A stretch of 64,000 nt of DNA from a virus (lineage: Duplodnaviria > Heunggongvirae > Uroviricota > Caudoviricetes): the IMG/VR virus record IMGVR_UViG_3300047444_000069, positions 1-64,000 of that record, one strand, 5' to 3'. The notes beneath the pieces were generated by a model. That model worked only from the letters and a program-made list of their open reading frames with translations, was not told the DNA's origin and ran no database searches. The translations under genes and the position numbers were made by a program. Of the stretch, positions 25,684 through 61,266 are shown piece by piece (within the stretch, counting starts at the first letter, position 1; each line of letters begins with the position of its first letter).

Positions 25684-25711
25684 TTGACAAGTATTCCCAA
25701 ACCTGTATAAT
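25684..25711 (+). promoter_or_regulatory. early promoter cassette TTGACA-16-TATAAT + conserved leader
   Basis: 'gTTGACAagtATTCCCAAACCTGTATAATcctttcatcgacaacacgaacGGGAG'. Confidence 0.65.
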
Positions 25712-25744
25712 CCTTTCATCGACAACACGAACGGGAGTAAACAA

Positions 25745-26101
25745 ATGGGACTGATCGTTGAAGTTTATCGCGGCGCACGCGGCCATGACTGTACCAACCA
25801 CGGCATCTCGTCGCGCTATGACGAACTCTGCCTGATGAACGTGGACGGACCTTTCGAACCGAACGAACTGAATGTCGCACCGGCATGGTTGGATTCGCAC
25901 TATCCGGGCTGTGCACGCATCATCCCGGCCATCAAGAAGAACGGCGTCTGGGTTCCGTACCCGGAAAGCCCGATGTACGGCGGAAACGTGGCCTGTACGT
26001 CCGACAGCCGGTTCTCGGAAGCCGTCGAAAAGCTTCTGGGACACAACTGGTACGGCGCGGTCAAGATTCACGACCGTTTCGAGACGGAACAAGAACTCTG
26101 A
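25745..26101 (+). CDS. hypothetical protein
   Basis: 118 aa. Confidence 0.5.
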   Translation: MGLIVEVYRGARGHDCTNHGISSRYDELCLMNVDGPFEPNELNVAPAWLDSHYPGCARIIPAIKKNGVWVPYPESPMYGGNVACTSDSRFSEAVEKLLGHNWYGAVKIHDRFETEQEL

Positions 26102-26110
26102 AGAAAGTAG

Positions 26111-26160
26111 TTGACACGAATTCCCACGTTTGGTAAGATTCTTCTTGTCCCAAACGTGGG
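26111..26160 (+). promoter_or_regulatory. early promoter TTGACA-17-TAAGAT with 11-bp inverted repeat bracketing the -10
   Basis: CCCACGTTTGG 26123-26133 / CCAAACGTGGG 26150-26160. Confidence 0.6.
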
Positions 26161-26183
26161 ACGAACTAATAGGAGATTAGCAC

Positions 26184-26495
26184 ATGGGCCAAAGCATCAA
26201 GCCGAAGTACGCACTGGAAGTCTACGAAACCCGTATGGTCGATGGTAAGCCGCGCAGCGTGCTGGCCTTCGAAGGTGCAACGTGGGACACCAAGCGTCAC
26301 GGTCGCCCGGATTCCAAGAACCTCGAAAAGTACGTGCTGGCATACGGCAAGTCGCTGGAAACGGGTGGTTCGAACTTCCACATCACGGAAGCTAAGGGTT
26401 ATGTCTCGTATCCGAATCGTGCGGTGATCCGCTTCAATCACTCGAATGGCGCAACGGTCGCGTCGTGGCAAGCACCCGCCTTCATGGTGTGGTAA
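26184..26495 (+). CDS. hypothetical protein
   Basis: 103 aa; SD AGGAG. Confidence 0.5.
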   Translation: MGQSIKPKYALEVYETRMVDGKPRSVLAFEGATWDTKRHGRPDSKNLEKYVLAYGKSLETGGSNFHITEAKGYVSYPNRAVIRFNHSNGATVASWQAPAFMVW

Positions 26496-26505
26496 GGGAG
26501 AGAAC

Positions 26506-26742
26506 ATGAACAAAGCGAAACTGATCGCAGACCTCAAGAGCATTCGTAAGGACGCCACGATGGGGACGGCCAACTTCAACCAAATCCCAACTGGTGAGAC
26601 GTTCACGTATCCAACCAAGGAATCCGAAGTCACGGCATTCATTGAAGAACGCACGCGACTCTGGCGCGATACGTGGATCGTCGGGATGCTCGATGAAGTC
26701 ATCAACGATCTGCAACGCGGCGCGGCCCGCTATCAGGACTGA
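26506..26742 (+). CDS. hypothetical small protein
   Basis: 78 aa; SD GGGAGAG. Confidence 0.45.
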   Translation: MNKAKLIADLKSIRKDATMGTANFNQIPTGETFTYPTKESEVTAFIEERTRLWRDTWIVGMLDEVINDLQRGAARYQD

Positions 26743-26752
26743 GGGAGAATTC

Positions 26753-26998
26753 ATGCGTTCTATCGGTCCTCACGAAGAACTGTCGGTCGGGACGAAGGTC
26801 CGGGTCGGCAACAAGTACGGTACGGTGGTGAGTGCCACGGTCAGACCGGCGCATCCGAGAGGAACCATCGTGGTCCATGAGATTCACTTCACGGAAGCTG
26901 TTCTGCGCGGGGTCGGGCGGATCAGGGCAAAACCCAAGGCGATGTCGAAACCCTACACATCATTCGTCAATTACTCTTTCATTTACGTTCTCGAATAA
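26753..26998 (+). CDS. hypothetical small protein
   Basis: 81 aa; SD GGGAGAA. Confidence 0.45.
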   Translation: MRSIGPHEELSVGTKVRVGNKYGTVVSATVRPAHPRGTIVVHEIHFTEAVLRGVGRIRAKPKAMSKPYTSFVNYSFIYVLE

Positions 26999-27004
26999 CA
27001 AAAG

Positions 27005-27196
27005 ATGCTAATAAGAATTGCACTGCTGTTCGCGCTGTTTGCGGGCGGTTTGTATGTCTTCCTGTCGTGCTTCGGAAAGATCGACAGGAAGACTTGGGGA
27101 ACCTTCTTCCGGGCGTTGATGAAGGTTCTCGTTTGTCTCATGTTCGGCGCGGCGGCAGTCGCCTCGCTTGGAATCGTTTCGCAACTTACCAACTGA
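27005..27196 (+). CDS. small membrane protein (2 TM)
   Basis: 63 aa, two hydrophobic helices. Confidence 0.4.
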   Translation: MLIRIALLFALFAGGLYVFLSCFGKIDRKTWGTFFRALMKVLVCLMFGAAAVASLGIVSQLTN

Positions 27197-28279: not shown

Positions 28280-28308
28280 TTGACACAACTCCCGGATGCG
28301 GGTATGAT
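28280..28308 (+). promoter_or_regulatory. early promoter TTGACA-17-TATGAT
   Basis: IR GGTATGA/TCATACC around -10 (28301-28320); partial 'ctcccacgtttg' copy upstream. Confidence 0.55.
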
Positions 28309-28343
28309 TCTTCTCATACCAACAACGCACCGGGAGTTTTCAC

Positions 28344-28727
28344 ATGAAGAAGATCATTGATGTTCGCGTCGAATCGGACCTCTACGTTGCTGGCCGTGAT
28401 GAAGATGGTCAGGAAATCCACGGTTTGTCCTACAAGGTCGTCGCGGAATTCGAAGGGGGTGAAGCCTATCACCACGAACACACGTTCCCGACCGTGAAGC
28501 TGGAAGCGATTTGGTGTGATGCCATCAGCGAAATGGTCCAGTGCAATTCCCTCGACCCCGAATCACAGAAGGCGAAGGCCGAACGTCTGTGCGCTCGCGT
28601 TCACAAGCACATCAAACAAGGTGGTAAGATTGACATGAACCACTGGCAGTTTCATCGGACGATTTACGGCACTTCTGCCTACCTCGATGAAGTTTCGATG
28701 ATGACGGCGGAACAACGAGCACAATAA
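28344..28727 (+). CDS. hypothetical protein
   Basis: 127 aa; SD GGGAG. Confidence 0.5.
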   Translation: MKKIIDVRVESDLYVAGRDEDGQEIHGLSYKVVAEFEGGEAYHHEHTFPTVKLEAIWCDAISEMVQCNSLDPESQKAKAERLCARVHKHIKQGGKIDMNHWQFHRTIYGTSAYLDEVSMMTAEQRAQ

Positions 28728-29831: not shown

Positions 29832-29859
29832 TTGACATCCTCTCCCAAACCTGTAGAAT
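29832..29859 (+). promoter_or_regulatory. early promoter cassette TTGACA-16-TAGAAT
   Basis: 'TTGACAtcctctCCCAAACCTGTAGAAT'. Confidence 0.6.
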
Positions 29860-29935
29860 CTGTTCTCAGGTTGAGACGCAAAACAAACAAGTCGAAACCG
29901 AAACACAAAACCAACTCTGATAAGGAATCTACACC

Positions 29936-30466
29936 ATGAAAAAGATCGCACTCGCATTCATTTCCGTCCTCGCAATCTCGACGGCAGCTTTCGCACACGA
30001 CACCAACGTCGGTCAATCGGGCAGCGTCGCCGGTCAACTGAATGTCGGCGCACAGACCTCGCAGTACAGCGGCAACATCAACGGGTCGGCAACGTCCATC
30101 TCGAACGGCAACGCGGTCACGGCGGCGCAAGTCGGTGGTCAGGGTCAGTCAATCCAGTCGGCCTTCAACAACACTGGCGGCACGTCCACGGTCGGCGGTT
30201 CGATCAGCGCGGGTGGTGCAACGGTCGGTTCGGGTACGACGCAGTATTCGAACAGCACCGTGACCGGTAACGTGTCGGGCAACGCTCCCACGATGGACGG
30301 CAACAGCATCGCCAACGGCGGCGCAGCGTTCGGCAACACGACCACGACCGCTAATGTCGGCGCGAACTTCGGTTCGAACGTGCAAGGCGGAACCCTCGGC
30401 ATCAACGGTTCGGCTGGTTTCCAAGCGGTCGGCAGCATCAGCGGCGCACATGGATTCGGGCAGTAA
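29936..30466 (+). CDS. secreted G/S/T/N-rich low-complexity protein
   Basis: signal peptide 'MKKIALAFISVLAISTAAFA'; 176 aa, >70% G/S/T/N/A/V/Q. Confidence 0.55.
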   Translation: MKKIALAFISVLAISTAAFAHDTNVGQSGSVAGQLNVGAQTSQYSGNINGSATSISNGNAVTAAQVGGQGQSIQSAFNNTGGTSTVGGSISAGGATVGSGTTQYSNSTVTGNVSGNAPTMDGNSIANGGAAFGNTTTTANVGANFGSNVQGGTLGINGSAGFQAVGSISGAHGFGQ

Positions 30467-31231: not shown

Positions 31232-31260
31232 TTGACACGCATTCCCAGACTTGTTATAAT
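31232..31260 (+). promoter_or_regulatory. early promoter cassette TTGACA-17-TATAAT
   Basis: 'TTGACAcgcATTCCCAgACtTGtTATAAT'. Confidence 0.6.
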
Positions 31261-31288
31261 TCAGTTCTAAGATCAAGAAGGGGAAGAA

Positions 31289-31441
31289 ATGAAGAAGAAC
31301 AAGATGAAGTGGAAGGGGAACAAGATCGTGATCGAGCTTGTTCCCCTGAAGCCCCGCATCGGAGTGATCTTCTCCAAAGTAGTAAGCAACAAAAAGTTGA
31401 AGAAACACAAGATCAAACACAAGAACAAGGTTGCAGATTGA
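31289..31441 (+). CDS. 51-aa Lys-rich basic peptide
   Basis: SD AAGGGGAAG; first ORF after promoter; not in ORF track (<60 aa). Confidence 0.4.
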   Translation: MKKNKMKWKGNKIVIELVPLKPRIGVIFSKVVSNKKLKKHKIKHKNKVAD

Positions 31442-32596: not shown

Positions 32597-33724
32597 ATGA
32601 GCAAGCAATATGATGTGGTGGTGTATCGCGGTCGGTTCCAAGGTTTCCACAATGCGCACCTGAAGACGATCCTGATGGCGCTTCAGTTCGCCAAGAAGGT
32701 CATCGTCGTGATCGGTAGTGCCAACGAAGCCCGCACGTACTATCGCAATCCGTTCTTTGAAGATGAGCGTATTGAGATGATCAAGGGCGCATTGTCCGAT
32801 CACTTCCGCCACGAAGACGTGTCGTTCGTTTCGGTTCAAGACAACCCGAGCGATAGCGCATGGGCGGAAGATGTCGAAGACAAGGTTGCCGCGCGTGTAA
32901 ATCGTCTGTTCGAAGGAACCGAAGGTGTCATCAGCATCGCACAGATCGGTTTCAAGAAAGACGCCAACTGCGAACGCGATGTCGATCTGTTCCCGACATG
33001 GGAATACATCGAGACACCCAACTTCGAACCGCTGGACGCTACGCATGTGCGCGAAGTTCTGTTCAGCATGAAGCCACTGTCGTTCCTCGCTGGCGTGTGT
33101 CCGCATTCGGTGATTCAGTATTTCGAAGCGTTCCGCCAGTCGCACACGTGGCTGAACATGTTCGAAGAAAAGATTTACGTCGAGAACTACCAGAAGCAGT
33201 TTGCTGGTCTTCCGTATGCTCCCACGTTCGTGACTGGCGACAACGTAGCAATTCAACGCGGTCGTGTGCTGTTGGTGAAGCGTGGCAATCATCCGGGCAA
33301 GGGTCTGTGGGCGCTTCCGGCTGGCTTCTTTAACGCCAAGAAGCATGTCACCAAGGGCGAAGTGATCCCCGCTGACCGTGATCCGCTGGATTGTGCCGTT
33401 CGAGAACTGTTCGAAGAAACGAAGGCCAAGGTGACGCGTCTCGAATTGGAAATGCGTGTGATCGGTGAGGAAGTGTTCGCGGCTGAAGATCGTGATCCGC
33501 GTGGCCGCATCATCACTCATGCGTTTGCCTACAACCTCGATACGCTGTCCGATCTTGAAACCGAAGCGGCGGATGATGCCACAGAAACCGGCTGGTTCTT
33601 CCTTGGTGACCTCGATCCCCGCACGATCTATGCGGACCACTTCCAGATCATCAAGTGGGGCTTCTTTGAGTACCACAAGGTCAGTAATTGGGCCTTGCAA
33701 GACCGAATGAACCGGCTGGTATAA
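32597..33724 (+). CDS. bifunctional NMN adenylyltransferase / Nudix ADP-ribose pyrophosphatase (NadM-Nudix)
   Basis: 'GRFQGFHNAH' (H/T)xGH nucleotidyltransferase motif; C-terminal Nudix box 'RELFEETKAKV'. Confidence 0.75.
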   Translation: MSKQYDVVVYRGRFQGFHNAHLKTILMALQFAKKVIVVIGSANEARTYYRNPFFEDERIEMIKGALSDHFRHEDVSFVSVQDNPSDSAWAEDVEDKVAARVNRLFEGTEGVISIAQIGFKKDANCERDVDLFPTWEYIETPNFEPLDATHVREVLFSMKPLSFLAGVCPHSVIQYFEAFRQSHTWLNMFEEKIYVENYQKQFAGLPYAPTFVTGDNVAIQRGRVLLVKRGNHPGKGLWALPAGFFNAKKHVTKGEVIPADRDPLDCAVRELFEETKAKVTRLELEMRVIGEEVFAAEDRDPRGRIITHAFAYNLDTLSDLETEAADDATETGWFFLGDLDPRTIYADHFQIIKWGFFEYHKVSNWALQDRMNRLV

Positions 33725-33742
33725 CAACTACAGGAAATAAAA

Positions 33743-35113: not shown

Positions 35114-35141
35114 TTGACAAGTTAAGGCTGACAGGTATGAT
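35114..35141 (+). promoter_or_regulatory. early promoter TTGACA-16-TATGAT
   Basis: preceded by 'ATTCCCAAAAGTGGG'. Confidence 0.55.
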
Positions 35142-35179
35142 TCGTGCCTGTTGGTCCTTTTCTATTTCAGGAGATTGCT

Positions 35180-35482
35180 ATGACGAAACGTACCTTCGAA
35201 GAACGCGTGAAGTTCGACTGCGGCTTCCTGATCGGCCACAAGTACGGCGTGCGTCTCGCGAAGAATGGCGTACAGTCGCGCTATGCGGTCGTCTTCATCC
35301 CGCCGCGTGGCCGTGCCCGTCTGGTCATCAAGACGCACCTTCATGGCACCGTGTATGGCATCAACACGTCGCTGATCAAGGGAGACGATCTGGTGTTCCT
35401 TGGCTACTCCACGAAGCCCGCTGATGTGGACGAGTTCAATGCACTGATCGCGGACCCGGATTGCAAGGTCATCGAATTCTAA
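35180..35482 (+). CDS. hypothetical protein
   Basis: 100 aa from 'MTKRTF'; SD AGGAG. Confidence 0.5.
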   Translation: MTKRTFEERVKFDCGFLIGHKYGVRLAKNGVQSRYAVVFIPPRGRARLVIKTHLHGTVYGINTSLIKGDDLVFLGYSTKPADVDEFNALIADPDCKVIEF

Positions 35483-35500: not shown

Positions 35501-35532
35501 TTGACGAAGGATTCTCAAACATGTAGAATCCT
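35501..35532 (+). promoter_or_regulatory. early promoter TTGACG-17-TAGAAT with 8-bp IR across -10
   Basis: AGGATTCT 35508-35515 / AGAATCCT 35525-35532; conserved leader 'ccttttcatcgaatcaacaacGGAG'. Confidence 0.6.
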
Positions 35533-35553
35533 TTTCATCGAATCAACAACGGA

Positions 35554-35853
35554 GTGCAGCACATGGCAATCACCATTCGCACCAACAACGTCCCGCGCAA
35601 TCCGATCTACGGGTACGAACTGTCCGAAAAAGAGCGCAAGGAATTCGACTACATCGACGCTGAACACTTCGATGGTCACAGCTTCCTGCGCTACAAGGGC
35701 GAACTGTATGACCTGTCGGACTTCATGCGTGCGCGAGAAATCAGCGAACTGTCCGCATGGGACGGCTACGCATCAGATTCCTACTTCAGCGGCATCGTGA
35801 TCAAGTACGTTGACAACTTCGAGCGTGTCATCGTCGGAACCTACATCTCCTAG
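35554..35853 (+). CDS. hypothetical protein
   Basis: 99 aa. Confidence 0.5.
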   Translation: MQHMAITIRTNNVPRNPIYGYELSEKERKEFDYIDAEHFDGHSFLRYKGELYDLSDFMRAREISELSAWDGYASDSYFSGIVIKYVDNFERVIVGTYIS

Positions 35854-36185: not shown

Positions 36186-36556
36186 CATCACGTCGCGTCA
36201 CTGAAGCTTTCCCACTGACCGAAGCCGATGTTGGTAAGTTCATCAACAGCGATTCAATGTGGAACTTCGGCATCTGCCATAGGCCCGCTGAAGTGGTCAA
36301 GGTTGCGAAGTCGCGCGTCTACATCCGTGAAGCGGAAGCCGACCGTTGGGACGATGAAATCAAGGAATGGACCCTGAAGCCCGGAACGCGAGAGTCGTCC
36401 TATGTGATGATGAAGTCGGTCAAGTTCGTCTCCGACACGTTTGTAGAAGCCGACCTGTTGTATCAAATTTCCCGTAACTGTGTGAAAGACACGAACGACG
36501 CAATTTCGGCAACTGCCGAAAAATACAGCAAACTTGTCGGAAACATGTTGACATGA
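36182..36556 (+). CDS. hypothetical protein
   Basis: 124 aa, ATGA coupling. Confidence 0.45.
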   Translation: MTSRRVTEAFPLTEADVGKFINSDSMWNFGICHRPAEVVKVAKSRVYIREAEADRWDDEIKEWTLKPGTRESSYVMMKSVKFVSDTFVEADLLYQISRNCVKDTNDAISATAEKYSKLVGNMLT

Positions 36557-36576
36557 ATTCCCAAGTTCGGTAGAAT
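36548..36576 (+). promoter_or_regulatory. early promoter TTGACA-17-TAGAAT
   Basis: 'TTGACAtgaATTCCCAAgttCGGTAGAAT'; -35 overlaps end of upstream gene. Confidence 0.6.
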
Positions 36577-36614
36577 TCTTCATATCGAATTAACAACCCC
36601 ATAGGAGTTAGACT

Positions 36615-36860
36615 ATGACGACATTCGCAAACTGGTTTAAGACCTTCAACGAAGAAAAGGGCATCGACCCCGAGACGAACATCGAAGTCGAAGGTCCGAG
36701 TGGCACGAACTTCATGACGCTGGAAAACGTCTTCGAAGCGATCCTCGCCACGTCCCCGGCTGAACAAGCTGGTATCAAGGCGATGATCGTCAAGATCGAC
36801 TTCGCGAACGGCAACGTGGTCGATTACTACAAGCATCTCGCCAAGGCCATCGCACAATGA
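36615..36860 (+). CDS. hypothetical small protein
   Basis: 81 aa; SD GGAG. Confidence 0.5.
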   Translation: MTTFANWFKTFNEEKGIDPETNIEVEGPSGTNFMTLENVFEAILATSPAEQAGIKAMIVKIDFANGNVVDYYKHLAKAIAQ

Positions 36861-38361: not shown

Positions 38362-38390
38362 TTGACATAGACCGGCATTGAGCGTACAAT
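38362..38390 (+). promoter_or_regulatory. sigma70-like promoter TTGACA-17-TACAAT
   Basis: -35/-10 match, spacer lacks CCCAAAC core. Confidence 0.5.
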
Positions 38391-38435
38391 TCTTTGTGTC
38401 GGTTCTGAAACAAAAACACCTTTGGGAGTTTCATC

Positions 38436-38693
38436 ATGCAGTTCAGGACGACCGATGTTCATGGCATTTTCGTTTATGACATGTCCGACAGTGTTTGTTG
38501 GTCCGAGAAGGTGACCGACTACTACAACAAGGGAGACGTGATCGACGTTGACTTTGAAGTGGTGATCGAGACGCACTTCACCGCTGATTTTCTGGGCGGC
38601 AAGCTGGTTGCAGTAGATGAAGAAGCGAAGGCATGGGCGGCACCTTTGTTAGAAATGATGAAGTCGCCCGAGGAAGTAGAAGAAGTACGGTAA
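38436..38693 (+). CDS. hypothetical small protein
   Basis: 85 aa; SD GGGAG. Confidence 0.5.
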   Translation: MQFRTTDVHGIFVYDMSDSVCWSEKVTDYYNKGDVIDVDFEVVIETHFTADFLGGKLVAVDEEAKAWAAPLLEMMKSPEEVEEVR

Positions 38694-39696: not shown

Positions 39697-39727
39697 AACC
39701 ACACGAAACAAACTGAGAACGACCAAC

Positions 39728-40078: not shown

Positions 40079-40086
40079 GAACATTC

Positions 40087-40631: not shown

Positions 40632-40634
40632 ACC

Positions 40635-42082: not shown

Positions 42083-42115
42083 TTGACAAAGGTGGGGATT
42101 CTCGTTAGAATCCCC
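42083..42115 (+). promoter_or_regulatory. early promoter TTGACA-17-TAGAAT with 9-bp IR across -10
   Basis: GGGGATTCT 42094-42102 / AGAATCCCC 42107-42115. Confidence 0.6.
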
Positions 42116-42143
42116 ATTGTCGCTTCTATAGGGAGAGAAACAC

Positions 42144-42272
42144 ATGGACCGCTTCTATGACTTCATGATCAGCAACACAGCATGGAACCTTCCGGTATGG
42201 GCGGCAGTTGCCCTGATGGTCGTCCTCGCGATCCTTCGCGCGTTCTGGAACGTCATTCACTGGTTCGCCTGA
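42144..42272 (+). CDS. 42-aa single-TM peptide
   Basis: SD GGGAGAG; 'WNLPVWAAVALMVVLAILRAFW'. Confidence 0.4.
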   Translation: MDRFYDFMISNTAWNLPVWAAVALMVVLAILRAFWNVIHWFA

Positions 42273-43445: not shown

Positions 43446-43474
43446 AAGGCCGGTCGAAAGATCGGCCTTTTTGC
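43446..43474 (+). terminator. rho-independent terminator
   Basis: GGCCGGTC-gaaa-GATCGGCC + TTTTTG. Confidence 0.7.
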
Positions 43475-43484
43475 ATTCTGGTGC

Positions 43485-43513
43485 TTGACAATGTATTCCC
43501 AAGTCTGTATATT
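43485..43513 (+). promoter_or_regulatory. early promoter cassette TTGACA-17-TATATT
   Basis: 'TTGACAatgtATTCCCAAgtCTGTATATTtcttccatcgacaacgcatttGGGAG'. Confidence 0.6.
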
Positions 43514-43547
43514 TCTTCCATCGACAACGCATTTGGGAGAGCAAGAC

Positions 43548-43742
43548 ATGAACTACATCAAACGTCTCGAAGCTGATCTGAAAGCCGCGCAAGACAAGCT
43601 GGCCGCGATGGAAGAAGAAATCCAATCCTTCCGCAAGCACCTTCAGTCCTCGAAGTTCGTAAACACGGAAACCGAACGCAACGACTGGATCGCGGTAGCA
43701 GACGTGCAACGTCATCTGGACAACATCAAGAACGCAGAGTAG
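43548..43742 (+). CDS. hypothetical small coiled-coil protein
   Basis: 64 aa from 'MNYIKRLEAD'. Confidence 0.45.
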   Translation: MNYIKRLEADLKAAQDKLAAMEEEIQSFRKHLQSSKFVNTETERNDWIAVADVQRHLDNIKNAE

Positions 43743-43926: not shown

Positions 43927-44250
43927 ATGGCCCAACTTCTCACCGACAATCGCATTGGCAAGGCACACGCCTTCTACTTGGTCCTGAAGCTGAAGGCGGG
44001 TCACTACCGCATCGACAAGCCGACAAGCCCTGAAGCGGTCGGTGAAATCTACAAGCGGGACAACGACTGGTACGGTGAAATCACGCTCGATGGCATGTTC
44101 TTCAATTCGTGCGGCACTGGCCTGAAGGACGTGATCTACGAACTGGAACACAGCATCGTGCGCAACGGCCAAGGCAAGAACATGGTGATCTACCAGAAGG
44201 ACGCCGAAGCCCTGACCGCGAACTTATTGAAGCGTCTCAGAAAGGGTTGA
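43927..44250 (+). CDS. hypothetical protein
   Basis: 107 aa; SD AGGAG. Confidence 0.5.
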   Translation: MAQLLTDNRIGKAHAFYLVLKLKAGHYRIDKPTSPEAVGEIYKRDNDWYGEITLDGMFFNSCGTGLKDVIYELEHSIVRNGQGKNMVIYQKDAEALTANLLKRLRKG

Positions 44251-44274
44251 CAAGCATTCCCAAACCTGTATAAT
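44247..44274 (+). promoter_or_regulatory. early promoter cassette TTGACA-16-TATAAT
   Basis: 'TTGACAagcATTCCCAAACCTGTATAATtcttttcatcaacaacGGAcatGAGG'. Confidence 0.65.
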
Positions 44275-44307
44275 TCTTTTCATCAACAACGGACATGAGG
44301 CACGACG

Positions 44308-44562
44308 ATGACCAATAAGACCAACGAGAAGATCGACTACGCCGCGCAACTGGCCTTGTTTTTGCTGAAGGAAACCGGATCGGTTTGTGGCAAGTGGCGG
44401 GGTCGGATGAATGCGGCCGAACAACGGGCGCTCTACGGACGGTTCATCGGACGTGGCGTGATCATGATCGACGGCACGGAGGAAACCATCCACCAACGGG
44501 TCAAGGTCTGTTTCGGGGCCGATTGGGACGACCGGAACTACGTGGACTGGAAAGACCTTTGA
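44308..44562 (+). CDS. hypothetical small protein
   Basis: 84 aa. Confidence 0.5.
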   Translation: MTNKTNEKIDYAAQLALFLLKETGSVCGKWRGRMNAAEQRALYGRFIGRGVIMIDGTEETIHQRVKVCFGADWDDRNYVDWKDL

Positions 44563-44959: not shown

Positions 44960-44988
44960 TTGATATCAGGTTCCCAAACCTGTAGAAT
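44960..44988 (+). promoter_or_regulatory. early promoter cassette TTGATA-17-TAGAAT
   Basis: 'TTGATAtcaggTTCCCAAACCTGTAGAATgcttttcatcgacaacaaacacGGAG'. Confidence 0.6.
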
Positions 44989-45022
44989 GCTTTTCATCGA
45001 CAACAAACACGGAGATTCAAAC

Positions 45023-45535
45023 ATGAGCCACTTCCAACTTATCAACGAAGAAACTGTCCGCCTGAAGGCCACGGATGCGCTCTACCGTATTAAAAATCGT
45101 CTGGCAGCTTCCCGTAAGGCTCTCGAAATCGTCCTGATGCACGAAGGCGCAACGATCAACGGTCATCTGCTGAACAAGCTGAAGAAGGCCGTGCTCCCTG
45201 ACTGGAAGCTGTATCTGGACACGCAGTACGGTTGGTATCAGTTGGAAATCGACGGTCCCGGTTTCGATACGATCCGCGTGAATCTCGCATACAAAGGTCA
45301 GACTACCGTGATCGACAAGGCGCTGGTCGAAGCAGGATTCAATCCGTACTTGCTGGATGCCGAACGTCTGGTGAAGTACGAAGGCGAACTTGAAACCATC
45401 GAAGCCCGCGTAAAGCGTTTCAACTACGCGCTGGTCGAATTGAAGGACGCATATGACGGTCTGGGCGATCTTCGCTTCGCGTTCTCGGACAATCACCTTC
45501 CGTCCATCAAGGACGCACAAGGACGCTGGATTTAA
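45023..45535 (+). CDS. hypothetical protein
   Basis: 170 aa. Confidence 0.55.
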   Translation: MSHFQLINEETVRLKATDALYRIKNRLAASRKALEIVLMHEGATINGHLLNKLKKAVLPDWKLYLDTQYGWYQLEIDGPGFDTIRVNLAYKGQTTVIDKALVEAGFNPYLLDAERLVKYEGELETIEARVKRFNYALVELKDAYDGLGDLRFAFSDNHLPSIKDAQGRWI

Positions 45536-50937: not shown

Positions 50938-51009
50938 ATTCATGCCCGATGTGGGCTGTTATCATAAATTCCCAAACATGGCAATATATTTCCAAAAGGA
51001 CATACAATC

Positions 51010-51186
51010 ATGGCGAACAGCTACAGCACCACGGACAAGGCCAAGTCGGTCTTGGACGAAATCCTCGAAGACCTGAGCAAGTCGGACGAACCGACCGAAT
51101 CACATCTGCCGGAAGAAGTCACCAAGTTGGATAAGGCGACGCTTCTTGCAGTAATCTACAGACTTGTTGCAAAAGTACGCGACTGA
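51010..51186 (+). CDS. hypothetical small acidic protein (58 aa)
   Basis: SD AAAAGGA; not in ORF track. Confidence 0.4.
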   Translation: MANSYSTTDKAKSVLDEILEDLSKSDEPTESHLPEEVTKLDKATLLAVIYRLVAKVRD

Positions 51187-52189: not shown

Positions 52190-52695
52190 TCCAAACATTC
52201 AAAGAATTTCTAATCGAGAAGTATGGGACGGCGGGGACGTATGCCGCGATGAAGTTCTCGCACACATCCGAACTGAATATCCGTAAGTTCCTCGTTCAGA
52301 ATGATGTCCCCAATTCGGTCCCACAAGACAAGCTGCATGTGACGCTGCTGTACTCGCGCAAGCCGATGGTCGGATATACGCCACGCGGCACGCTAACGGA
52401 GCCTGAGAAGGTCCGCGTCCTTGACTTTGCTGTCTGGGATACTCAGAACGGAAAGAAGGCGCTAGTGGCGCTCCTAGACGCTCCGAAGCTGATCATCCGA
52501 CACAAGGTTCTGATGCAGCAGTATGACGGCACGTATGACTTCCCGGATTACAAGCCACACTTCACCATGTCCTACGATGTTGGCCCCGACTTCAACAAAG
52601 ACAGTTTGCAAAAATTGACCGAACCGCTGTATCTCGACCGTGAGTATGGCGAAGAATTGAACACGAACTGGAAAGCAGATGACAAAACTGATTGA
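52186..52695 (+). CDS. 2H phosphoesterase superfamily protein (LigT/2'-5' RNA ligase-like)
   Basis: two H-x-T-x motifs: 'HVTLLYS' and 'HFTMSYD'; 169 aa. Confidence 0.6.
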   Translation: MIQTFKEFLIEKYGTAGTYAAMKFSHTSELNIRKFLVQNDVPNSVPQDKLHVTLLYSRKPMVGYTPRGTLTEPEKVRVLDFAVWDTQNGKKALVALLDAPKLIIRHKVLMQQYDGTYDFPDYKPHFTMSYDVGPDFNKDSLQKLTEPLYLDREYGEELNTNWKADDKTD

Positions 52696-55348: not shown

Positions 55349-55380
55349 CAAAAGCCCGCGTAAGCGGGCTTTTTTATTTT
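55349..55380. terminator. bidirectional rho-independent terminator
   Basis: AAAAGCCCGC-GTAA-GCGGGCTTTTTTATTTT between convergent genes. Confidence 0.8.
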
Positions 55381-57643
55381 ACATCACAAACGTTCCCATC
55401 ATTGCTCGATCAAAGTAGGATTCCCGACTACGGGGAGAACCACTGATCGGCATCACCTTCATATCGTTGCCAGAACTGCCGCCAGACTTAACGTTGGTTG
55501 TGGGGGCATGGACGATCACCGGCGCTTTGGATTCCTGTTTAACGGCTTCCTGATGGTCCTGCGAAGCCTTCGCGACGATCTTGCCACTATCGTTATCCTT
55601 CGTCGCCCACATACCGCCAAGTTTGCGTCCCGCCCAATCACCAAGTTCGCTTCCACCGAATCCACCCGCAACGCCGCCGATCAGTCCACCAACCGCCGTT
55701 CCAACACCCGGCATGATGGCAGTGCCGATCAATGCACCTGTAGTCGCACCGGCTTCGGCACCGGCCCAACCGCCCGCAACAGCACCGGCACCGCCGCCCG
55801 CAGCTTTCGCCTTGGCTTCCTTGGCCTGTTGTGGTGTGATCTTTCCGGCCTTCAATGCCGCGTCTACGTCCTGATACTCGTTGTAGGCGTCATATGCAGT
55901 GATTGCCGTGCCCGCGATGCCAAGCGCCTTACCTGCCTTACCCAGACCCTTTGCGACCTTGGACGTGGCCTTTGCTGCACCCTTGGCTTCACCTTCCAGA
56001 CCTTCAGCAGCACCTTTCGCGCCTTTCGCCTTGACTTCACTTTCGCCCGTCTTGGCCTTTTCTTCGGTCTTCGGCTTCACTTCTTCGGCCTGACCTTCCT
56101 TACCCTTACCCTTGATCTTTTCCTTGATCTTTTCCTTTGCGCCATGAAGCAGTTCAGCACCAGTTGCGAGTAATGAGAGAGGATCGATACCGCCGCCATC
56201 ACCTTCAGCTTTCGCGTCGTCAGCGAAGTTGCGAGTCGAATCCGCAGAACGTGGACCGACATCATTATCAACCAACGTATCATCCTTAGTGAAAGCATTG
56301 GCAACGGTCGGCGTCGGAAGAAGGGGTAGCGCGAAACCGGTAGCCACAGCACCACGAACAGCAGAGGACATCGGGCCTTCTTGTGTACGCAGAGGCGTGG
56401 ACGGATTCCCCTTGACCTTGATCGGTTCTTCGGCGGGCTTCGGCGTCACGTCATGTGCAGTCTGCTTCGGATGCGCAATCTCTTTGAACTCGACATCTTC
56501 GGCGTCATTGATCGAATCGATTTTCTTGCGCCGAAATGTAGGCTTCACACGGACCAAATCAGTCTGTGGTTCGCGTGGCTTCAAGTCGGGCACCGGAAGA
56601 AAGTTGCCTTCCTGATGTTCGATCTGCTTTGGGGGCATCACGGATTCGCTGGACGGCGAAGGAAGAACAGGCGCAACCGTAGCACCAGATGGCGAAGGAA
56701 GAACAGGCACTACCTTGGCAGCAACCGCAGCACCAGAAGGAGGCGGAAGCATAGGACTACCAACAACTGCTGCTGCGGTACGGCCACTATTTGGCGGCAA
56801 TGTCGGAGCAACATAGAACGGGGGCTTCTTGCCTTCCGCATGTTCCGAGTGTTCGCGCTCAACCATCTTGACGATCAGGCGTTCGACATGAAGGTTCTCG
56901 ATCTTGTCGGGGAACTTACCGACAGCATCGCCCTTGATACCCGACATTGCGGCTGCGATCTTGGCTACAAGCTTATCATCATGGTTGTCGGCGGGCTTTT
57001 CCTGTTCGCCCATGATGTCATCACCGAGACGAGTTTTTACCGCTTCGGCTGCACCAAGGTTCTGCATCTCTTGCAACGGCGTAATCAGGTTCTTGTGATT
57101 ACGTTTGTTGTCATACCCGGCCAAGCGTCGGAACAGAGGACTCTCCATATCCGCCTTTGATGCACCAAACATCTTCTCGAACCGGTAGCCAAGTTCCTGC
57201 TTGGCGGCGCTACCCTGTGGCTGATGCTTGTCCGTATGCTGCATACCTATGGCGGCAATCTTTTCAATCTGTGCCTTGGCCTCAACACTACCTTCAACCT
57301 CATTGATACGCGCGACCGCAGCTTGGAATTCCTTGTTCGAACGTTCGAAGTCGAACTTGCCATCCTTGCGCAGCTTCATGAATTCTTCAACGACCTCACG
57401 GAACACTTCCTTTTGTTCCTCTGATGCCGTCTTCATGAACTCTCGTTGATCTTTGATTTCGTCAGTGAACTGTTGATATGCTTCATCAACACGCTTGACG
57501 TTTGCACTCTCATTGCCCTTGTTGGATGACACCTGATTGCGACGCAGAATGTCACCGACATTCACCACTTCACTGATGAATTTATCATTCGACATGCGCT
57601 GAACTTCTTGTGTCTGCCGGGATTTGGTCGCTTGCATTGCCAT
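55379..57643 (-). CDS. large (754 aa) hypothetical protein with helical N-terminus, Pro-rich 'LPSPSG' repeats and C-terminal Gly-zipper region; possibly virion/tape-measure-like
   Basis: 'GAGAVAGGWAGAEAGATTGALIGTAIMPGVGTAVGGLIGGVAGGFGG'; Lys/Ala/Glu-rich helical stretches. Confidence 0.55.
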   Translation of the reverse strand: MAMQATKSRQTQEVQRMSNDKFISEVVNVGDILRRNQVSSNKGNESANVKRVDEAYQQFTDEIKDQREFMKTASEEQKEVFREVVEEFMKLRKDGKFDFERSNKEFQAAVARINEVEGSVEAKAQIEKIAAIGMQHTDKHQPQGSAAKQELGYRFEKMFGASKADMESPLFRRLAGYDNKRNHKNLITPLQEMQNLGAAEAVKTRLGDDIMGEQEKPADNHDDKLVAKIAAAMSGIKGDAVGKFPDKIENLHVERLIVKMVEREHSEHAEGKKPPFYVAPTLPPNSGRTAAAVVGSPMLPPPSGAAVAAKVVPVLPSPSGATVAPVLPSPSSESVMPPKQIEHQEGNFLPVPDLKPREPQTDLVRVKPTFRRKKIDSINDAEDVEFKEIAHPKQTAHDVTPKPAEEPIKVKGNPSTPLRTQEGPMSSAVRGAVATGFALPLLPTPTVANAFTKDDTLVDNDVGPRSADSTRNFADDAKAEGDGGGIDPLSLLATGAELLHGAKEKIKEKIKGKGKEGQAEEVKPKTEEKAKTGESEVKAKGAKGAAEGLEGEAKGAAKATSKVAKGLGKAGKALGIAGTAITAYDAYNEYQDVDAALKAGKITPQQAKEAKAKAAGGGAGAVAGGWAGAEAGATTGALIGTAIMPGVGTAVGGLIGGVAGGFGGSELGDWAGRKLGGMWATKDNDSGKIVAKASQDHQEAVKQESKAPVIVHAPTTNVKSGGSSGNDMKVMPISGSPRSRESYFDRAMMGTFVM

Positions 57644-57837
57644 GTTTTAGCCCTTGGTTTGATGTGCGCGCAACTGCGCCATTTCAGTCTCATGCCGAAT
57701 ATGTTGCACAAGCTGCCCTACGTAGATTTCCCGCTCCCACGGAATCATGTTGTCCAACTCTGTCAACGAATAGCCATGAAATTGCCGAAGGCTGAAGTTC
57801 AACGTGTAGTAGTTGTACAACGTGTCATGTGAGAGCA

Positions 57838-58536
57838 CTATCCGAAAAAAGCTTCGACGCCTTCGAGTGTGTACTGCGTTTCCTTCTCGCAGTGCGGACA
57901 TTTATCCGTGAAGGTGTGACGCAGAACCGGCATCGTGCGGAAGAAGTCTTCTATCTTGGCGAATTGTTCGGTCGTCAAGGCTTCGACAAACTGTGCAACT
58001 TCTTCTGGTGTTTCGTCTTTGGTTTGGTGAACCTCTGTCTCAGTGAAGACCGATTCGATACACTGGCAGATTGTTTGGTAGACCGTATCAACGGAGTAGT
58101 TCTTGTTGAGGAACGACAGTTGATCGGTGGTTGGGTAAGCCATCTCGACGCCCAGATTGTCGGCCAAGATGATCTTCTTGGTATGGTCTTTGTTCTTCTG
58201 GACCTCGACAATGGAAAGAGGCAGATTGTGTTCGTGATCCGCCTTGCAGTGTTGGCACGTCAAAATCAGATCGACAGTTTCGCCGGATGACTTGGATCGA
58301 ATCTGAAGGAACAAATATTCAAGATCGAAGTTAGGCATCGCTTCGACATCAAGCTTCTCGAATGTACATGCATTGACGGCTTCTTTGATTGCAAGGAGAA
58401 CGTCCGCTTCGCCGCCTTCAACGGCCATCAGCATGTTTTTCTGTTCACCTACCAACCAAGGACGGTACTTGATAGTCTTTCCCGTTGAGGGCACTTTAGT
58501 CTGGTAGGTCGGGGTCGTGTTGCGCGGGAGTGACAT
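57838..58536 (-). CDS. hypothetical protein with two Cys pairs (CQHC...CPHC), possible zinc ribbon; possibly structural
   Basis: 232 aa; GATAAATAG late-like motif ~30 nt upstream on minus strand. Confidence 0.5.
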   Translation of the reverse strand: MSLPRNTTPTYQTKVPSTGKTIKYRPWLVGEQKNMLMAVEGGEADVLLAIKEAVNACTFEKLDVEAMPNFDLEYLFLQIRSKSSGETVDLILTCQHCKADHEHNLPLSIVEVQKNKDHTKKIILADNLGVEMAYPTTDQLSFLNKNYSVDTVYQTICQCIESVFTETEVHQTKDETPEEVAQFVEALTTEQFAKIEDFFRTMPVLRHTFTDKCPHCEKETQYTLEGVEAFFG

Positions 58537-58576: not shown

Positions 58577-58604
58577 TTGACGCGAATTCCCAGACGTGTA
58601 TAAT
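58577..58604 (+). promoter_or_regulatory. early promoter cassette TTGACG-16-TATAAT
   Basis: 'TTGACGcgaATTCCCAgACgTGTATAAT'. Confidence 0.6.
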
Positions 58605-58722
58605 CCTTTATCAACTGGCTACGAAGAAGTACCAAGAAAACTACAACGATTGTTGGTTGTGTGTAGCACGCACTGAAAAGAAACGTGTAAAATGCGCACA
58701 ACAATACGAAAGGGACACTGTA

Positions 58723-59184
58723 ATGCCGATCAATGCACAGATTCAGAAAGACGGTTCGTTGACGTTCGAAGACTACCGGAAGCCAGAACCCACGTACTTT
58801 CCCGGCGCTACGCTGATGATCCCCGCGAATGGTCCGTGGGACACATCCATGTTTGCTGTAATCGAACAGAAAGACTCGGACCATCCGGGCATGGTCGCGT
58901 TCGTCGCCAAGCGCATCGATACGTTCGATCAGGCCCGAGAAGTCGCTGATTATCTGTGGGAACTGGCCGAAGAAGCTGGACGTGTGATGGATAAGTACCC
59001 GCGCATGTCGAACGGGCTGACACCGAATCATGTCAAGGGAACCTTTGAGTGGCGTGCCGACAAGCTGAAGGTCGATGCCGCACTCGAACACAGTCGGACC
59101 TTCAACAAGTGGTATGTGAAGTACTACAAGAAAGAGATTTACGCCTACAGACAAGCAACACGAACTAGAAATCTACAGAGATGA
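58723..59184 (+). CDS. hypothetical protein
   Basis: 153 aa from 'MPINAQ'; SD AGGGA. Confidence 0.5.
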   Translation: MPINAQIQKDGSLTFEDYRKPEPTYFPGATLMIPANGPWDTSMFAVIEQKDSDHPGMVAFVAKRIDTFDQAREVADYLWELAEEAGRVMDKYPRMSNGLTPNHVKGTFEWRADKLKVDAALEHSRTFNKWYVKYYKKEIYAYRQATRTRNLQR

Positions 59185-59393
59185 AATACGCACAACTTGC
59201 AACAGACTTGATGTTCTCGGCGGTCAGGGTTGCGGACCTCGCCACGAAGTACGGTTTACAGTTCCGCAAGAACAAGACCGGCAACGACATCTCAAACGCC
59301 ATCAGGAAGGCACGGAGAGCCGGATACGGAAAGGTCGAATTCGAGATGAACATGCTGGAATTCTATCTGAAAGAAATTCTCAAAAAGGCTTGA
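59181..59393 (+). CDS. hypothetical small protein
   Basis: 70 aa, ATGA coupling. Confidence 0.45.
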   Translation: MKYAQLATDLMFSAVRVADLATKYGLQFRKNKTGNDISNAIRKARRAGYGKVEFEMNMLEFYLKEILKKA

Positions 59394-59418
59394 CGGCGAA
59401 TCCCCAAGTCTGTATTAT
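59390..59418 (+). promoter_or_regulatory. early promoter cassette TTGACG-17-TATTAT
   Basis: 'TTGACGgcgAATCCCCAAgtCTGTATTATtctcacatcgcaacgaacttGGGG'. Confidence 0.55.
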
Positions 59419-59450
59419 TCTCACATCGCAACGAACTTGGGGATTCGAAC

Positions 59451-59729
59451 ATGGACATCAAGGAACTGAAGGCCGCGCTGATCACGAAGGGCTGGACGGA
59501 AGATCGTTGGGGTAACCTGAAGCGCGAAGTTTCGCACGAAGATGGTGTCCGCGTGTATCGCGTGAAAGTGCAGAAGATTTCGATCCGCATCGAACGCCAG
59601 TACACCATCGAAGCGTCACAATACTCCCCGGCACACAATGATTGGTCACTCGTTACCAGTTCTTACCTGAAAGATGTCAAGGTCCGCGAAGACGGTGGTA
59701 TCATTGTCGGGCGCAAGGTTTTGAAATAA
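59451..59729 (+). CDS. hypothetical protein
   Basis: 92 aa. Confidence 0.5.
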   Translation: MDIKELKAALITKGWTEDRWGNLKREVSHEDGVRVYRVKVQKISIRIERQYTIEASQYSPAHNDWSLVTSSYLKDVKVREDGGIIVGRKVLK

Positions 59730-59763
59730 TCTGCGCATTGGGACAACTTTCAGGGAAAAGAAT

Positions 59764-60132
59764 ATGCTTCAAGCTGATCCAAGTGAGTTCATGCCAACCG
59801 ATGCAGACACGTTGCTGGATGTGTATTGCAAGTTCCCGGTAGAGAACATCCAACGGGTTCTGAGCACGGTAGAAGAACGGCTGTGCTTTGAACCCGGCAA
59901 CCTGATCGACAAGCTTCTGGATACGGTTGATCGGTCCTTGCGAGAAATAGACGTGACGGTGAAGGAATCGTGCGTCTACGATGATGTCTCAATCGTCGTT
60001 TGTTATGACGTTCCGACCACGATTGAACAGATCAAATCCAATGTTGCGCGTGCGTGCTATTTCTTCTGGCAGCACAACATCGCCTTCACCAAAGAAGCAC
60101 AAGAAGCGTTGAGGGTCGGTAAGGAACATTAA
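59764..60132 (+). CDS. hypothetical protein
   Basis: 122 aa; SD AGGGAAAAG. Confidence 0.5.
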   Translation: MLQADPSEFMPTDADTLLDVYCKFPVENIQRVLSTVEERLCFEPGNLIDKLLDTVDRSLREIDVTVKESCVYDDVSIVVCYDVPTTIEQIKSNVARACYFFWQHNIAFTKEAQEALRVGKEH

Positions 60133-60155
60133 AAACAAAAACGTGTTTGTCGGTG

Positions 60156-60183
60156 TTGACATGTACAACCAAACCTGTATAAT
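60156..60183 (+). promoter_or_regulatory. early promoter cassette TTGACA-16-TATAAT
   Basis: 'TTGACAtgtacaACCAAACCTGTATAATtcttcacatcggcaaacacaacGGAG'. Confidence 0.65.
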
Positions 60184-60217
60184 TCTTCACATCGGCAAAC
60201 ACAACGGAGCGCAAGAC

Positions 60218-61219
60218 ATGAACAAGATCAACGCGGACCAGTTCCCCATCACCTTCGCTGCAACGTCCAACCTCACCAACAACTTCCGCGCGAGCGACAT
60301 CAAGCGTTTCGTCAAGGCCATCCCGGAAATCAACGAAGTCATCGACGCAAACGAAGTCATCGTGGCGCACGCGAAAGACCTTCGGCGCTATATCAACGAT
60401 TTCGTGTACGCAGCGTTCGACGCCGTAATCTCGGACAAATACTGGAAGCTTGGTCGCTACGAATCCTTGCCGGAAGATGTCCAAGCCCTGAACTACGAAC
60501 TGCCGCGCGAAGCACGCCTCATTGCTTCGTTCGAAAAGAAGCTGAACAAGGTCAAGACCGAACACGCATTGATCGCAGAATGCCGCGCATTGATCGCAGA
60601 ACTTCAACCGCTGGCCGACCTCGTTGCGTTCTTCAAGACGGTCGAAGTGAAGGCCACGGTCAAGCGTGCAGCAGTCAAGGCACAGAAGATCGAAGAAGTC
60701 CGCGTTGCAAGCCATACCGATGTCGTCTATCAAGCGGTTCTCCCGCTGAAGCTGATGGCTCAAGATCGTGCCGAATTGCACTTCCGTGCATCGGTTCGTA
60801 TTGCAGCAGAAGAAATCCTGAACGCTGGTGGTGATCTTGAAAAGCTGGTCCCGATCCCCGAAGGCAAGCTGACCGGATTTCAAGAAGCCCGCATCAACGC
60901 AGCACGTCGCTTCTATGTGTCGATCTGCAATTTGCGCAACCATCGCTACCTGACGCTGAATGATCAGTTGGTCGAAACCGAAGTCCTGAAGGTGCGTCGC
61001 GATGCAGCTTTCCAGTTCGAAGCCTTCGTATCGAAGCTGAACGATAAGATCAACGATGTCACGCTGAAGGCAGAACTGGCGGGTGATCCGTGGATCGGTT
61101 CGACGCTGACGGTGGAGACGAAGAACAAGGGCACGCAAGTCTGGAACACGAAGATGATCGTCAACGTGTCCAAGTACGGTAAGGTGTTCAACCAGTTCCC
61201 GACCCGACTGGCGCGATAA
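60218..61219 (+). CDS. hypothetical protein (333 aa)
   Basis: SD GGAG; long antisense ORF rejected. Confidence 0.55.
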   Translation: MNKINADQFPITFAATSNLTNNFRASDIKRFVKAIPEINEVIDANEVIVAHAKDLRRYINDFVYAAFDAVISDKYWKLGRYESLPEDVQALNYELPREARLIASFEKKLNKVKTEHALIAECRALIAELQPLADLVAFFKTVEVKATVKRAAVKAQKIEEVRVASHTDVVYQAVLPLKLMAQDRAELHFRASVRIAAEEILNAGGDLEKLVPIPEGKLTGFQEARINAARRFYVSICNLRNHRYLTLNDQLVETEVLKVRRDAAFQFEAFVSKLNDKINDVTLKAELAGDPWIGSTLTVETKNKGTQVWNTKMIVNVSKYGKVFNQFPTRLAR

Positions 61220-61225
61220 AGAAAA

Positions 61226-61266
61226 CAGGTTTGGGTATTGACGAACGATACCCAAACCTGTAATAT
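61226..61266 (+). promoter_or_regulatory. early promoter TTGACG-17-TAATAT with -35 in loop of perfect 12-bp hairpin
   Basis: CAGGTTTGGGTA 61226-61237 / TACCCAAACCTG 61249-61260; leader 'ctctacatcgacaaccaaacGGAG'. Confidence 0.65.

Follow-up and report, generated by a model that had tools for sequence, protein, structure and literature searches.

T4 and other large lytic phages possess early promoters with an extended consensus. Within the T4-type phages, promoter-early stem-loop cassettes (PeSLs) have been described for RB49/phi1, T4/PST and KVP40/nt-1, and what defines them is a stable terminator stem-loop placed immediately ahead of the promoter (Arbiol et al. 2010, PMC2839356; Comeau et al. 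2014, PMC4122927). Here, a family of about 24 promoter-plus-leader modules is described in a 64,000-nt stretch of an uncultured viral genome (positions 1 to 64,000 of IMG/VR record IMGVR_UViG_3300047444_000069; hereafter W, or the window). The modules are probably early promoters of an uncultured T4-type phage, an interpretation given a probability of about 0.72, and one family of such host-type modules appears to head most of the blocks of small accessory genes.

The modules are best filed with the PeSL-type cassettes, as a variant of them. The kind of element is already known, and promoter, location and cassette-boundary behaviour are shared with it: the genome is of the T4 type, a near-consensus sigma70 promoter (TTGACA-N17-TATAAT, as in RB49) is repeated behind an AT-rich upstream region, a Shine-Dalgarno sequence (SD) and a start codon close the 3' end, the copies are concentrated among small ORFans (hyperplastic regions), homology between relatives breaks at the modules, and G-run/C-run inverted repeats are associated with them. 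The stem-loop is different. A separate upstream terminator, the classical PeSL layout, is found only at 43485, and it is in this respect that the PeSL likeness proposed in the original prediction falls short, the ORFan-rich location and the cassette-edge role being borne out. The hairpins described here overlap the promoter: their loop holds the -35 element, or the -10 element together with the start site, and the spacer forms one of the arms; in addition, the spacer carries a conserved motif absent from the PeSL description, and the copies are only about 57% identical. New are the clade-specific quasi-palindromic spacer motif, the promoter-overlapping hairpins and the lack of an obligatory upstream stem-loop.

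The modules also resemble extended-consensus early promoters in being many co-oriented, strong host-type promoters whose similarity reaches beyond the hexamers, but the extra conservation here is a G/C-rich spacer quasi-palindrome rather than an A/T-rich UP-type sequence. The early promoters of T4 have been described as exceptionally strong (PMC3014915).

The module family and its spacer motif

To judge from its gene set, the phage is a novel uncultured member of the T4-type group. W (G+C about 52%) encodes a gp41-type helicase with 54% identity to cyanophage T4-like homologs, a gp30-type ligase, a primase, a ribonucleotide reductase, a T5 A1-like protein and nicotinamide phosphoribosyltransferase (NAMPT), and its genes include dsbA, gp33, Acb1, gp59, gp32, PhoH, lysozyme and a T4-type baseplate protein; no tRNA genes were found in W, and no Rfam family matched at gathering thresholds. 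A nucleotide search with 4 kb of W gave no match among 50,697 phage records and therefore no annotated genome was usable; relatives were found by pattern and protein scans of IMG/VR. Two of them are about 168 kb long, A (IMGVR_UViG_3300046477_000062, nucleotide identity to W 77-95%) and B (IMGVR_UViG_3300046519_000060, about 68-88%), and several shorter IMG/VR fragments are more distant members of the clade; L024 and L039 denote shorter clade members. All of these relatives carry the same kind of module at syntenic or orthologous positions. Among 185,579 bacterial and archaeal genomes the exact module pattern gave 37 scattered matches, approximately the number estimated by chance for 596 Gb, and provided no clue to the host; the sole matching Pseudomonadales metagenome-assembled genome (L047) contains no modules.

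Sites with at least 10 of 12 matches to the sigma70 hexamers number 23 on the + strand of W and one on the - strand, against an expectation of 2.8 ± 1.5 per strand, and the 13 best promoter sites between 25 and 45 kb are all on the + strand. The family count of about 24, which takes in 61238 (9/12 matches) and a degenerate copy at 50956, agrees with the more than 20 copies originally proposed, and the fourteen main copies proposed were all recovered on the + strand with TTGAC(A/G) (TTGATA at 44960), a 16- or 17-nt spacer and a TATAAT-like TAnnnT. With at most two mismatches, ATTCCCAAACCTG is matched 15 times in W versus 1.3 times expected, a count that no shuffle reached. The pentamer YCCCR lies in the spacer of 15 of the 24 modules, at a distance of 9-14 nt (mostly 11) from where the -35 element starts; a background of 4.5% per 18-nt window would give about one; the -10 element is followed by TCTT (about 1 bit per column); and the leader motif TCTTNNCATCGACAAC has 22 matches against 8.7 expected, the best eight all within modules, the CATCGACAAC leader being present in only 8-10 copies. 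Over a 46-nt core the 12 best copies, which had been called near-identical, average only 57% pairwise identity, with a maximum of 83%, and therefore represent a motif family.

The surroundings of the modules are consistent with the sigma70-type promoter-leader organisation that had been proposed. The 20 nt ahead of the -35 element (-22 to -3) are 63% A+T, compared with 48 ± 2% for W, and on a strand-constrained gene map all modules lie in intergenic gaps of 55-110 bp, co-oriented with the genes and mostly 55-70 nt ahead of an SD (mostly GGAG) and start codon. In most of them the SD is followed by 7-8 nt and then ATG, 22-32 nt past the predicted start site. Between one module and the next there are 1 to about 9 genes, rather than the one to four first suggested. 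Small proteins without a family match surround 18 of the 24 modules, which lie at 24.5-45 kb and 58.5-61.3 kb; the 45-58.5 kb core segment (ligase, phoH, e, gp33, gp59, gp32) contains one weak copy only. By far the commonest SD of the modules, in W as well as in the relatives, is GGAG, which in T4 early-gene ribosome sites is the target of the RegB endoribonuclease (PMC3014915).

This anatomy points to promoter activity with early timing. Host sigma70 RNA polymerase would read the A/T-rich upstream region, TTGACA, the 16-17 bp spacer and a TATAAT-like -10 element; past the T/C-rich discriminator (TCTT), transcription is predicted to start at the A of CATCGACAAC, giving a G-poor leader of about 25 nt that runs into GGAG, 7-8 nt and ATG. 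Each module would head a short operon whose small accessory genes are mostly unknown. The consensus that the modules carry is extended and specific to the clade, and its most striking part is ATTCCCA-N4-TG(GG) beside the -10 element.

The spacer motif, a quasi-palindrome that adjoins the -10 element, occurs in 56 of 75 non-redundant clade modules: 41 have the forward half-motif ATTCCCA-N4-TG abutting the -10 element, 12 the full palindrome CCCA-N4-TGGG (sequence form TTCCCAAGTTTGGGAA) and 3 the reversed form, the half-site form being that of 44/75. Between half and full forms the offset from the -10 element differs by 2-3 nt. In W, 21 of the 24 modules have the motif either in the spacer or beside the -35 element; 35114 and 14261, with no spacer motif, have a copy ahead of the -35. 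Identity between orthologous modules is 0.93-0.99 for the -35 and -10 elements, 0.71-0.81 for the spacer, in which the CCC columns are the best kept (0.82-0.85), and 0.56-0.76 for the upstream flank. Since it is kept across the modules of the clade, the motif is a conserved lineage trait under some constraint, less than that on the hexamers. Reasons for this conservation are inferential, nucleic-acid structure accounting for a minority of copies only. The extra factor-binding site suggested originally is possible and would fit a motif that is quasi-palindromic, occurs in either orientation and is conserved throughout the clade.

Several details of the original prediction hold in part. The conserved spacer is real, but 35114, 38362 and 42083 lack the forward motif. 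What was taken for an inverted copy at 2552 is a promoter, but one on the + strand in which only the spacer core is reversed. The listing of a spacer subtype needs amendment for 28280, where the CCCACGTTTG string lies upstream of the -35 element and the spacer is CTCCCGGATGCGGG, and for 3671, which has the reversed core only. The listed copies are genuine members, but 17617, 24530, 38362 and the weaker 14261 and 50956 had been overlooked (Table 1).

The sole strong promoter-like site on the - strand, at 5365-5393 (TTGACA agaATCCCCAAcattga TATAAT, with a CCCCAA spacer motif), points antisense into the + strand gene at 4968-5240 with no open reading frame (ORF) downstream, and may drive an antisense RNA.

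Table 1. Modules and selected hairpins in the window (dG, folding free energy; z, z-score; Nn, spacer of n nt).
Feature	Position	Strand	Details
Module, spacer core reversed (GTTTGGGAAT)	2552..2633	+	TTGACC atGTTTGGGAATtcaga TATAAT, N17; ends at GTG start
Hairpin	3639..3690	+	AAGCCCCAAA/TTTGGGGCTT, 10 perfect pairs extending to 12; dG -31 kcal/mol, z -5.2
Module	3671..3733	+	spacer cGTTTGGGGCtttttgc, -10 TATAGT; spacer core reversed CGTTTGGGGC only, not CCCACGTTTGG
Weaker member	14261..14325	+	TTGAAC-N17-TATAAT; spacer without motif; TTCCCAAGTG 13 nt upstream of -35
Module	17617..17698	+	full palindromic spacer TTCCCGCGTTTGGG; inverted copy upstream CAAACTTGGGAA
Module	17960..18013	+	palindromic spacer TTCCCACGTTTGGGG; absent in A
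Module	24530..24595	+	18-bp spacer tagCCCCCAAtgttgtag
Consensus module	25684..25747	+	12/12 hexamer matches, ATTCCCAAACCTG
Module	26111..26186	+	spacer TCCCACGTTTGG pairs with leader CCAAACGTGGGA
Module	28280..28346	+	spacer ACTCCCGGATGCG pairs with CGCACCGGGAGT
Module	29832..29938	+	70-nt A/C-rich leader; precedes signal-peptide Gly/Ser/Thr/Asn-rich protein gene
Module	31232..31291	+	12/12 hexamer matches, ATTCCCAGACTTG, TGn extended -10
Module without spacer motif	35114..35182	+	palindrome ATTCCCAAAAGTGGG abuts -35 on upstream side
Module	35501..35565	+	degenerate spacer motif ATTCTCAAACATG; full palindrome ATTCCCGCGTTTGGG directly upstream of -35
Module	36548..36617	+	ATTCCCAAGTTCGG
Module without spacer motif	38362..38438	+	TTGACA-N17-TACAAT; heads dsbA-homolog block
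Module, reversed G-run in spacer	42083..42146	+	GGGGATTCT pairs with AGAATCCCC across -10
Separate intrinsic-terminator-like hairpin	43452..43475	+	GGCCGGTCGAAAGATCGGCC + T-run, just upstream of 43485
Module	43485..43550	+	spacer TTCCCAAGT pairs with SD region ATTTGGGAG
Consensus module	44247..44310	+	12/12 hexamer matches, ATTCCCAAACCTG
Module	44960..45025	+	TTGATA, GTTCCCAAACCTG
Degenerate member	50956..51012	+	ATTCCCAAACATG, weak hexamers; small ORF downstream
Module	58577..58725	+	112-nt leader; ATTCCCAGACGTG, TATAAT
Module	59390..59453	+	spacer CGAATCCCCAAGT pairs with SD-containing ACTTGGGGATTCG
Module	60156..60220	+	AACCAAACCTG, TATAAT, leader CATCGGCAAACACAACGGAG
Hairpin	61225..61261	+	CAGGTTTGGGTA/TACCCAAACCTG, 12 perfect pairs extending to 16; dG -26 kcal/mol, z -6.4
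Module	61238..61301	+	-35 inside loop of hairpin 61225..61261

Hairpins overlapping the promoter

About 10 of the 24 modules in W have a hairpin that overlaps the promoter, and stable hairpins with compensatory changes are seen over four genomes. In this subset the G/C-rich spacer would be one arm of a hairpin existing only in RNA that reads through from upstream, because transcripts from the module's own promoter lack one arm. A partner arm situated before the -35 element would give a terminator-like hairpin followed by the U-rich -10 element and TCTTTT, whereas a partner arm in the leader or SD would hide the ribosome site; termination or translational insulation are the outcomes that these layouts suggest.

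The two hairpins originally predicted to hold the -35 element in their loops both exist, and their stability greatly exceeds that of shuffled sequence. The one at 61225..61261 is followed by the U-rich -10 element and discriminator of module 61238, and in L039 the positions matching its stem carry a double change, GGTCTGG/CCAGACC. That at 3639..3690, composed of an A-tract, a stem and a T-tract, has the -35 of 3671 in its loop, its 3' arm and T-run constituting the promoter spacer, and looks like a terminator. This type, in which the U-rich -10 plus TCTTTT forms the tail, is represented by 61238, 3671, 44960 and their relatives. Elsewhere it is the -10 element that occupies the loop: together with the predicted start site in the hairpin at 26122-26161 (module 26111), where pairing is kept by compensatory changes (CCCACGTTTGG/CCAAACGTGGG in W and A, CCCGCGTTTGG/CCAAACGCGGG in B, CCAACGTTGCG/CGCAACGTTGG in L024), and also in the terminator-like hairpin at 35126-35156 (module 35114), which is followed by a T-run.

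In 28280, 43485, 59390 and their orthologs in A, B and L039 the promoter spacer is the 5' arm of a hairpin with the SD in its 3' arm, and the stems are conserved. The hairpin of 28280 (28287-28338; dG -30.5 kcal/mol, z -6.4), which ends in UUUU and could also cause termination, is kept in A and B, with dG values of -25 to -37 kcal/mol over the three genomes; that of 59390 (59397-59447) persists in A and L039, where both arms have changed; and that of 43485 spans 43496-43540. For the ortholog groups of these three modules and of 44247, the predicted probability that the SD is unpaired is 0.00-0.17 in the long RNA and 0.37-0.90 in the short RNA. A similar arrangement is known from the translation-initiation-region hairpins of the T4 genes e, soc, 49 and I-TevI (reviewed in PMC3014915), and in the 28280, 43485 and 59390 groups, too, the SD pairs with an arm upstream of the start of an internal promoter, such that the inhibitory helix is possible only in read-through RNA. 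The internal promoter here differs in being of the sigma70 type (TTGACA/TATAAT) rather than the late TATAAATA, the 5' arm is the promoter spacer itself, and the arrangement is a prediction that concerns a minority of modules: SD pairing of the T4 kind was found in four ortholog groups and not family-wide.

Pairing between spacer and leader exceeds expectation. The longest exact inverted repeat shared by the two averages 5.59, compared with 4.50 ± 0.14 when leaders are exchanged among modules, and repeats of at least 6 bp occur in 18 of 61 modules versus 8.0 expected; these inverted repeats are module-specific. Between the spacer and the sequence upstream of the -35 element there is no excess (10 versus 9.1 with permuted partners), which indicates a shared motif and not partner-specific stems.

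Cassette boundaries and competing explanations

Gene gain, loss and swapping between relatives would tend to break at module edges, as in PeSLs, because the modules would provide short patches of similarity at every cassette boundary. At 25684 the break in homology with A and B falls precisely on the 5' edge of the -35 element; at 43485 (A and B) and 61238 (A) homology ends at the ATG, with a different gene next; and at 17617 homology to A stops inside the leader, A having an extra gene after ...CAAACAC. The upstream flank of 36548 in W is unlike that in A and B, and at 44960 B has a 267-nt insertion ending at the -35 element. Module 17960 of W matches B3119 in its upstream flank and B3518 in its core, which are separate modules in B, and looks like a chimera of the two. 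Of 42 indels or replacements that span 40 nt or more, 16 lie directly against a module; with pseudo-modules placed in equal number at randomly chosen gene junctions, 9.6 ± 2.8 would be expected to do so (P=0.02). Taken together, this supports a putative PeSL-like boundary role, the modules marking the borders of gene cassettes in which close relatives differ. The mobility first envisaged is not supported: the nearest relative is the ortholog in 46 of 58 cases and a paralog in 12, which leaves little sign of recent copying and implies mostly vertical inheritance. Concerted evolution or recent transposition was on this ground mostly rejected.

Several points weigh against interpreting the modules as early promoters that delimit cassettes. 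The use of the promoters, their timing and their start sites are predicted from the sequence, and recognition by the host's sigma70 is assumed. The breakpoint enrichment is modest, the comparisons with A and B are not independent, and gene-boundary indels would coincide in part with any intergenic element; moreover, the longest exact stretch seen between paralogs, which share 57% on average, is 19 nt, short for homologous recombination. Since most modules have no hairpin partner, the conservation of the spacer in general cannot be put down to hairpins. Finally, the T4 late motif TATAAATA occurs only once on the two strands of W (63847, +), and the transcription programme may consequently differ from that of T4. 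A homolog of the late co-activator gp33 (51917-52189) and - strand structural genes (55379-58434, 61771-62889) are present despite this near-absence, and the late promoters of the clade may have a different consensus.

It is possible, if doubtful, that the spacer element is in addition an operator, TTCCCA-N4-TGGGAA, often reduced to its left half beside the -10 element and bound by a dimeric phage or host protein; such a protein would occupy a position between the -35 and -10 elements or next to them and would shut off or time the whole early regulon, which would add to the promoter reading. The occurrence of the motif in either orientation, as a full palindrome in a minority of modules, and beside the -35 element where the spacer copy is missing, argues for this, as do the well-kept CCC columns and the conservation of the motif across clade members that share only about 75% identity in their A1-like protein. 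In RNA the full palindrome is predicted to yield no more than a weak 4-bp stem capped by a tetraloop, and is therefore not accounted for by nucleic-acid structure. Temperate phages have multi-site repressor operators, such as the 'stoperators' of mycobacteriophage L5 and the C1 operators of P1. The modules resemble these in that one short motif recurs along a phage genome at numerous intergenic or promoter positions, but those phages are temperate with a known repressor, whereas the present phage is T4-type and presumably lytic, and its cognate protein is only hypothetical. A Pfam screen of ORFs of at least 50 aa at 24-62 kb, which covered 38 kb of the about 168-kb genome (five large genes were screened or identified separately), revealed no AsiA, MotA or classical helix-turn-helix repressor among 72 proteins, and its only DNA-binding matches were DsbA and gp32. 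The absence of AsiA and MotA from this region would suit an operator, and the shutdown of T4 early promoters has been described as incompletely understood (PMC3014915). The sole candidate there is the DsbA-family DNA-binding protein encoded at 39141-39443, but T4 DsbA binds A/T-rich late-promoter DNA weakly (PMC2988020), unlike this G/C-rich motif; the half-site alone is intact in most copies, and the variable offset from the -10 element also speaks against an operator. That an operator of a phage-encoded dimeric regulator lies over nearly all early promoters and doubles as a read-through-insulating hairpin arm is rather unlikely.

It is improbable that the spacer is a general anti-SD or terminator arm, in which UUCCC pairs with GGGAG and thereby silences or stops every read-through transcript. 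UUCCC is indeed complementary to GGGAG with one G-U pair, strong SD-sequestering hairpins are present in the 28280, 43485, 59390 and 44247 ortholog groups, and the geometry matches that of T4 genes e, soc, 49 and I-TevI (PMC3014915). However, inverted repeats with an upstream arm show no excess over permuted partners, and most modules, including the consensus copies 25684 and 44247, lack a long partner arm. As a general rule this pairing was rejected by partition-function folding of 53 modules, in which the SD was most open, at 0.39, behind the native upstream sequence; the value was 0.29 behind permuted and 0.33 behind shuffled sequence. Very improbable, too, is the view that spacer and leader are functionless and owe their similarity to recent cassette duplication or gene conversion, as a purely mobile repeat. 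The 12 modules closest to a paralog, the running of similarity through non-hexamer positions down to GGAGCGCAAGACATG and the apparent two-module chimera at 17960 could be so explained, but the predominance of orthologs as nearest relatives, the low average identity of paralogs and the presence of the motif at a fixed offset in diverged lineages, better conserved than its flanks, speak against it.

Neighbouring genes and the pf16 motif

Other parts of the window offer observations of their own. Within the module-rich region, a NadR-like nucleotidyltransferase plus NUDIX protein adjoins the nicotinamide phosphoribosyltransferase (32597-35098), the two forming a NAD+ salvage cassette of two genes, of the kind found in KVP40-type phages. 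Four consecutive small genes at 39632-40877 (148, 77, 103 and 80 aa) encode products with a similar C-terminal motif (GWSSSNC, GWQGSSC, GWKNSSSYC and GGWYSSHC) and no Pfam match, and look like a tandem paralog array. A 359-aa protein (37243-38322) with no PHROGs match has a signal or anchor sequence and C-terminal low-complexity serine runs broken by WDSG (SSSSSWDSGSSSS...). Between gp33 and gp59, positions 52249-52695 encode a homolog of Acb1, a phosphodiesterase directed against the cyclic-oligonucleotide-based antiphage signalling system (anti-CBASS; Pfam PF23474, E 4.6e-31). When their translations are judged by eye, the products of 63167-63859 (-) and 16442-16843 (+) have N-termini that resemble the GIY-YIG motif (TIYRITNHVNGKVYIGFT and FVYLITDHVNNKKYIGKK); they look like Seg-type homing endonucleases, a further local source of gene shuffling.

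A repeated element has also been annotated in the T4-like Pseudomonas phage pf16, as a 'phage-specific promoter' motif (PMC5587285). Dozens of conserved A/C-rich copies of it stand ahead of genes, as the modules do here, but the sigma70 promoters of pf16 show no TTCCCA spacer. As a homolog of the modules the motif was rejected, being an unrelated leader and ribosome-site sequence. In the pf16 record (KU873925), intergenic copies such as those at 7226-7253, 18919-18946, 25620-25647, 25926-25953 and 44709-44736 abut an ATG and contain the ribosome-binding site, and other annotated copies lie inside ORFs; the 'putative phage specific promoter' is thus more likely a leader/ribosome-site motif than a promoter.

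Interpreted as early promoters at cassette edges, the modules extend the PeSL-type promoter cassette to an uncultured T4-like clade of about 52% G+C that branches near the cyanophage T4-likes, in a layout more compact than that of the described PeSLs, in which promoter and hairpin use the same bases. When metagenomic genomes of the clade are annotated, the motif is a good marker of early genes and of cassette boundaries. Should a regulator bind the spacer motif, this would offer a concrete, testable handle on the switch-off of early transcription in some T4-like phages. Were it truly an operator, it would imply shut-off or timing of early transcription by a DNA-binding protein, in a lineage in which neither AsiA nor MotA was seen in the part examined.

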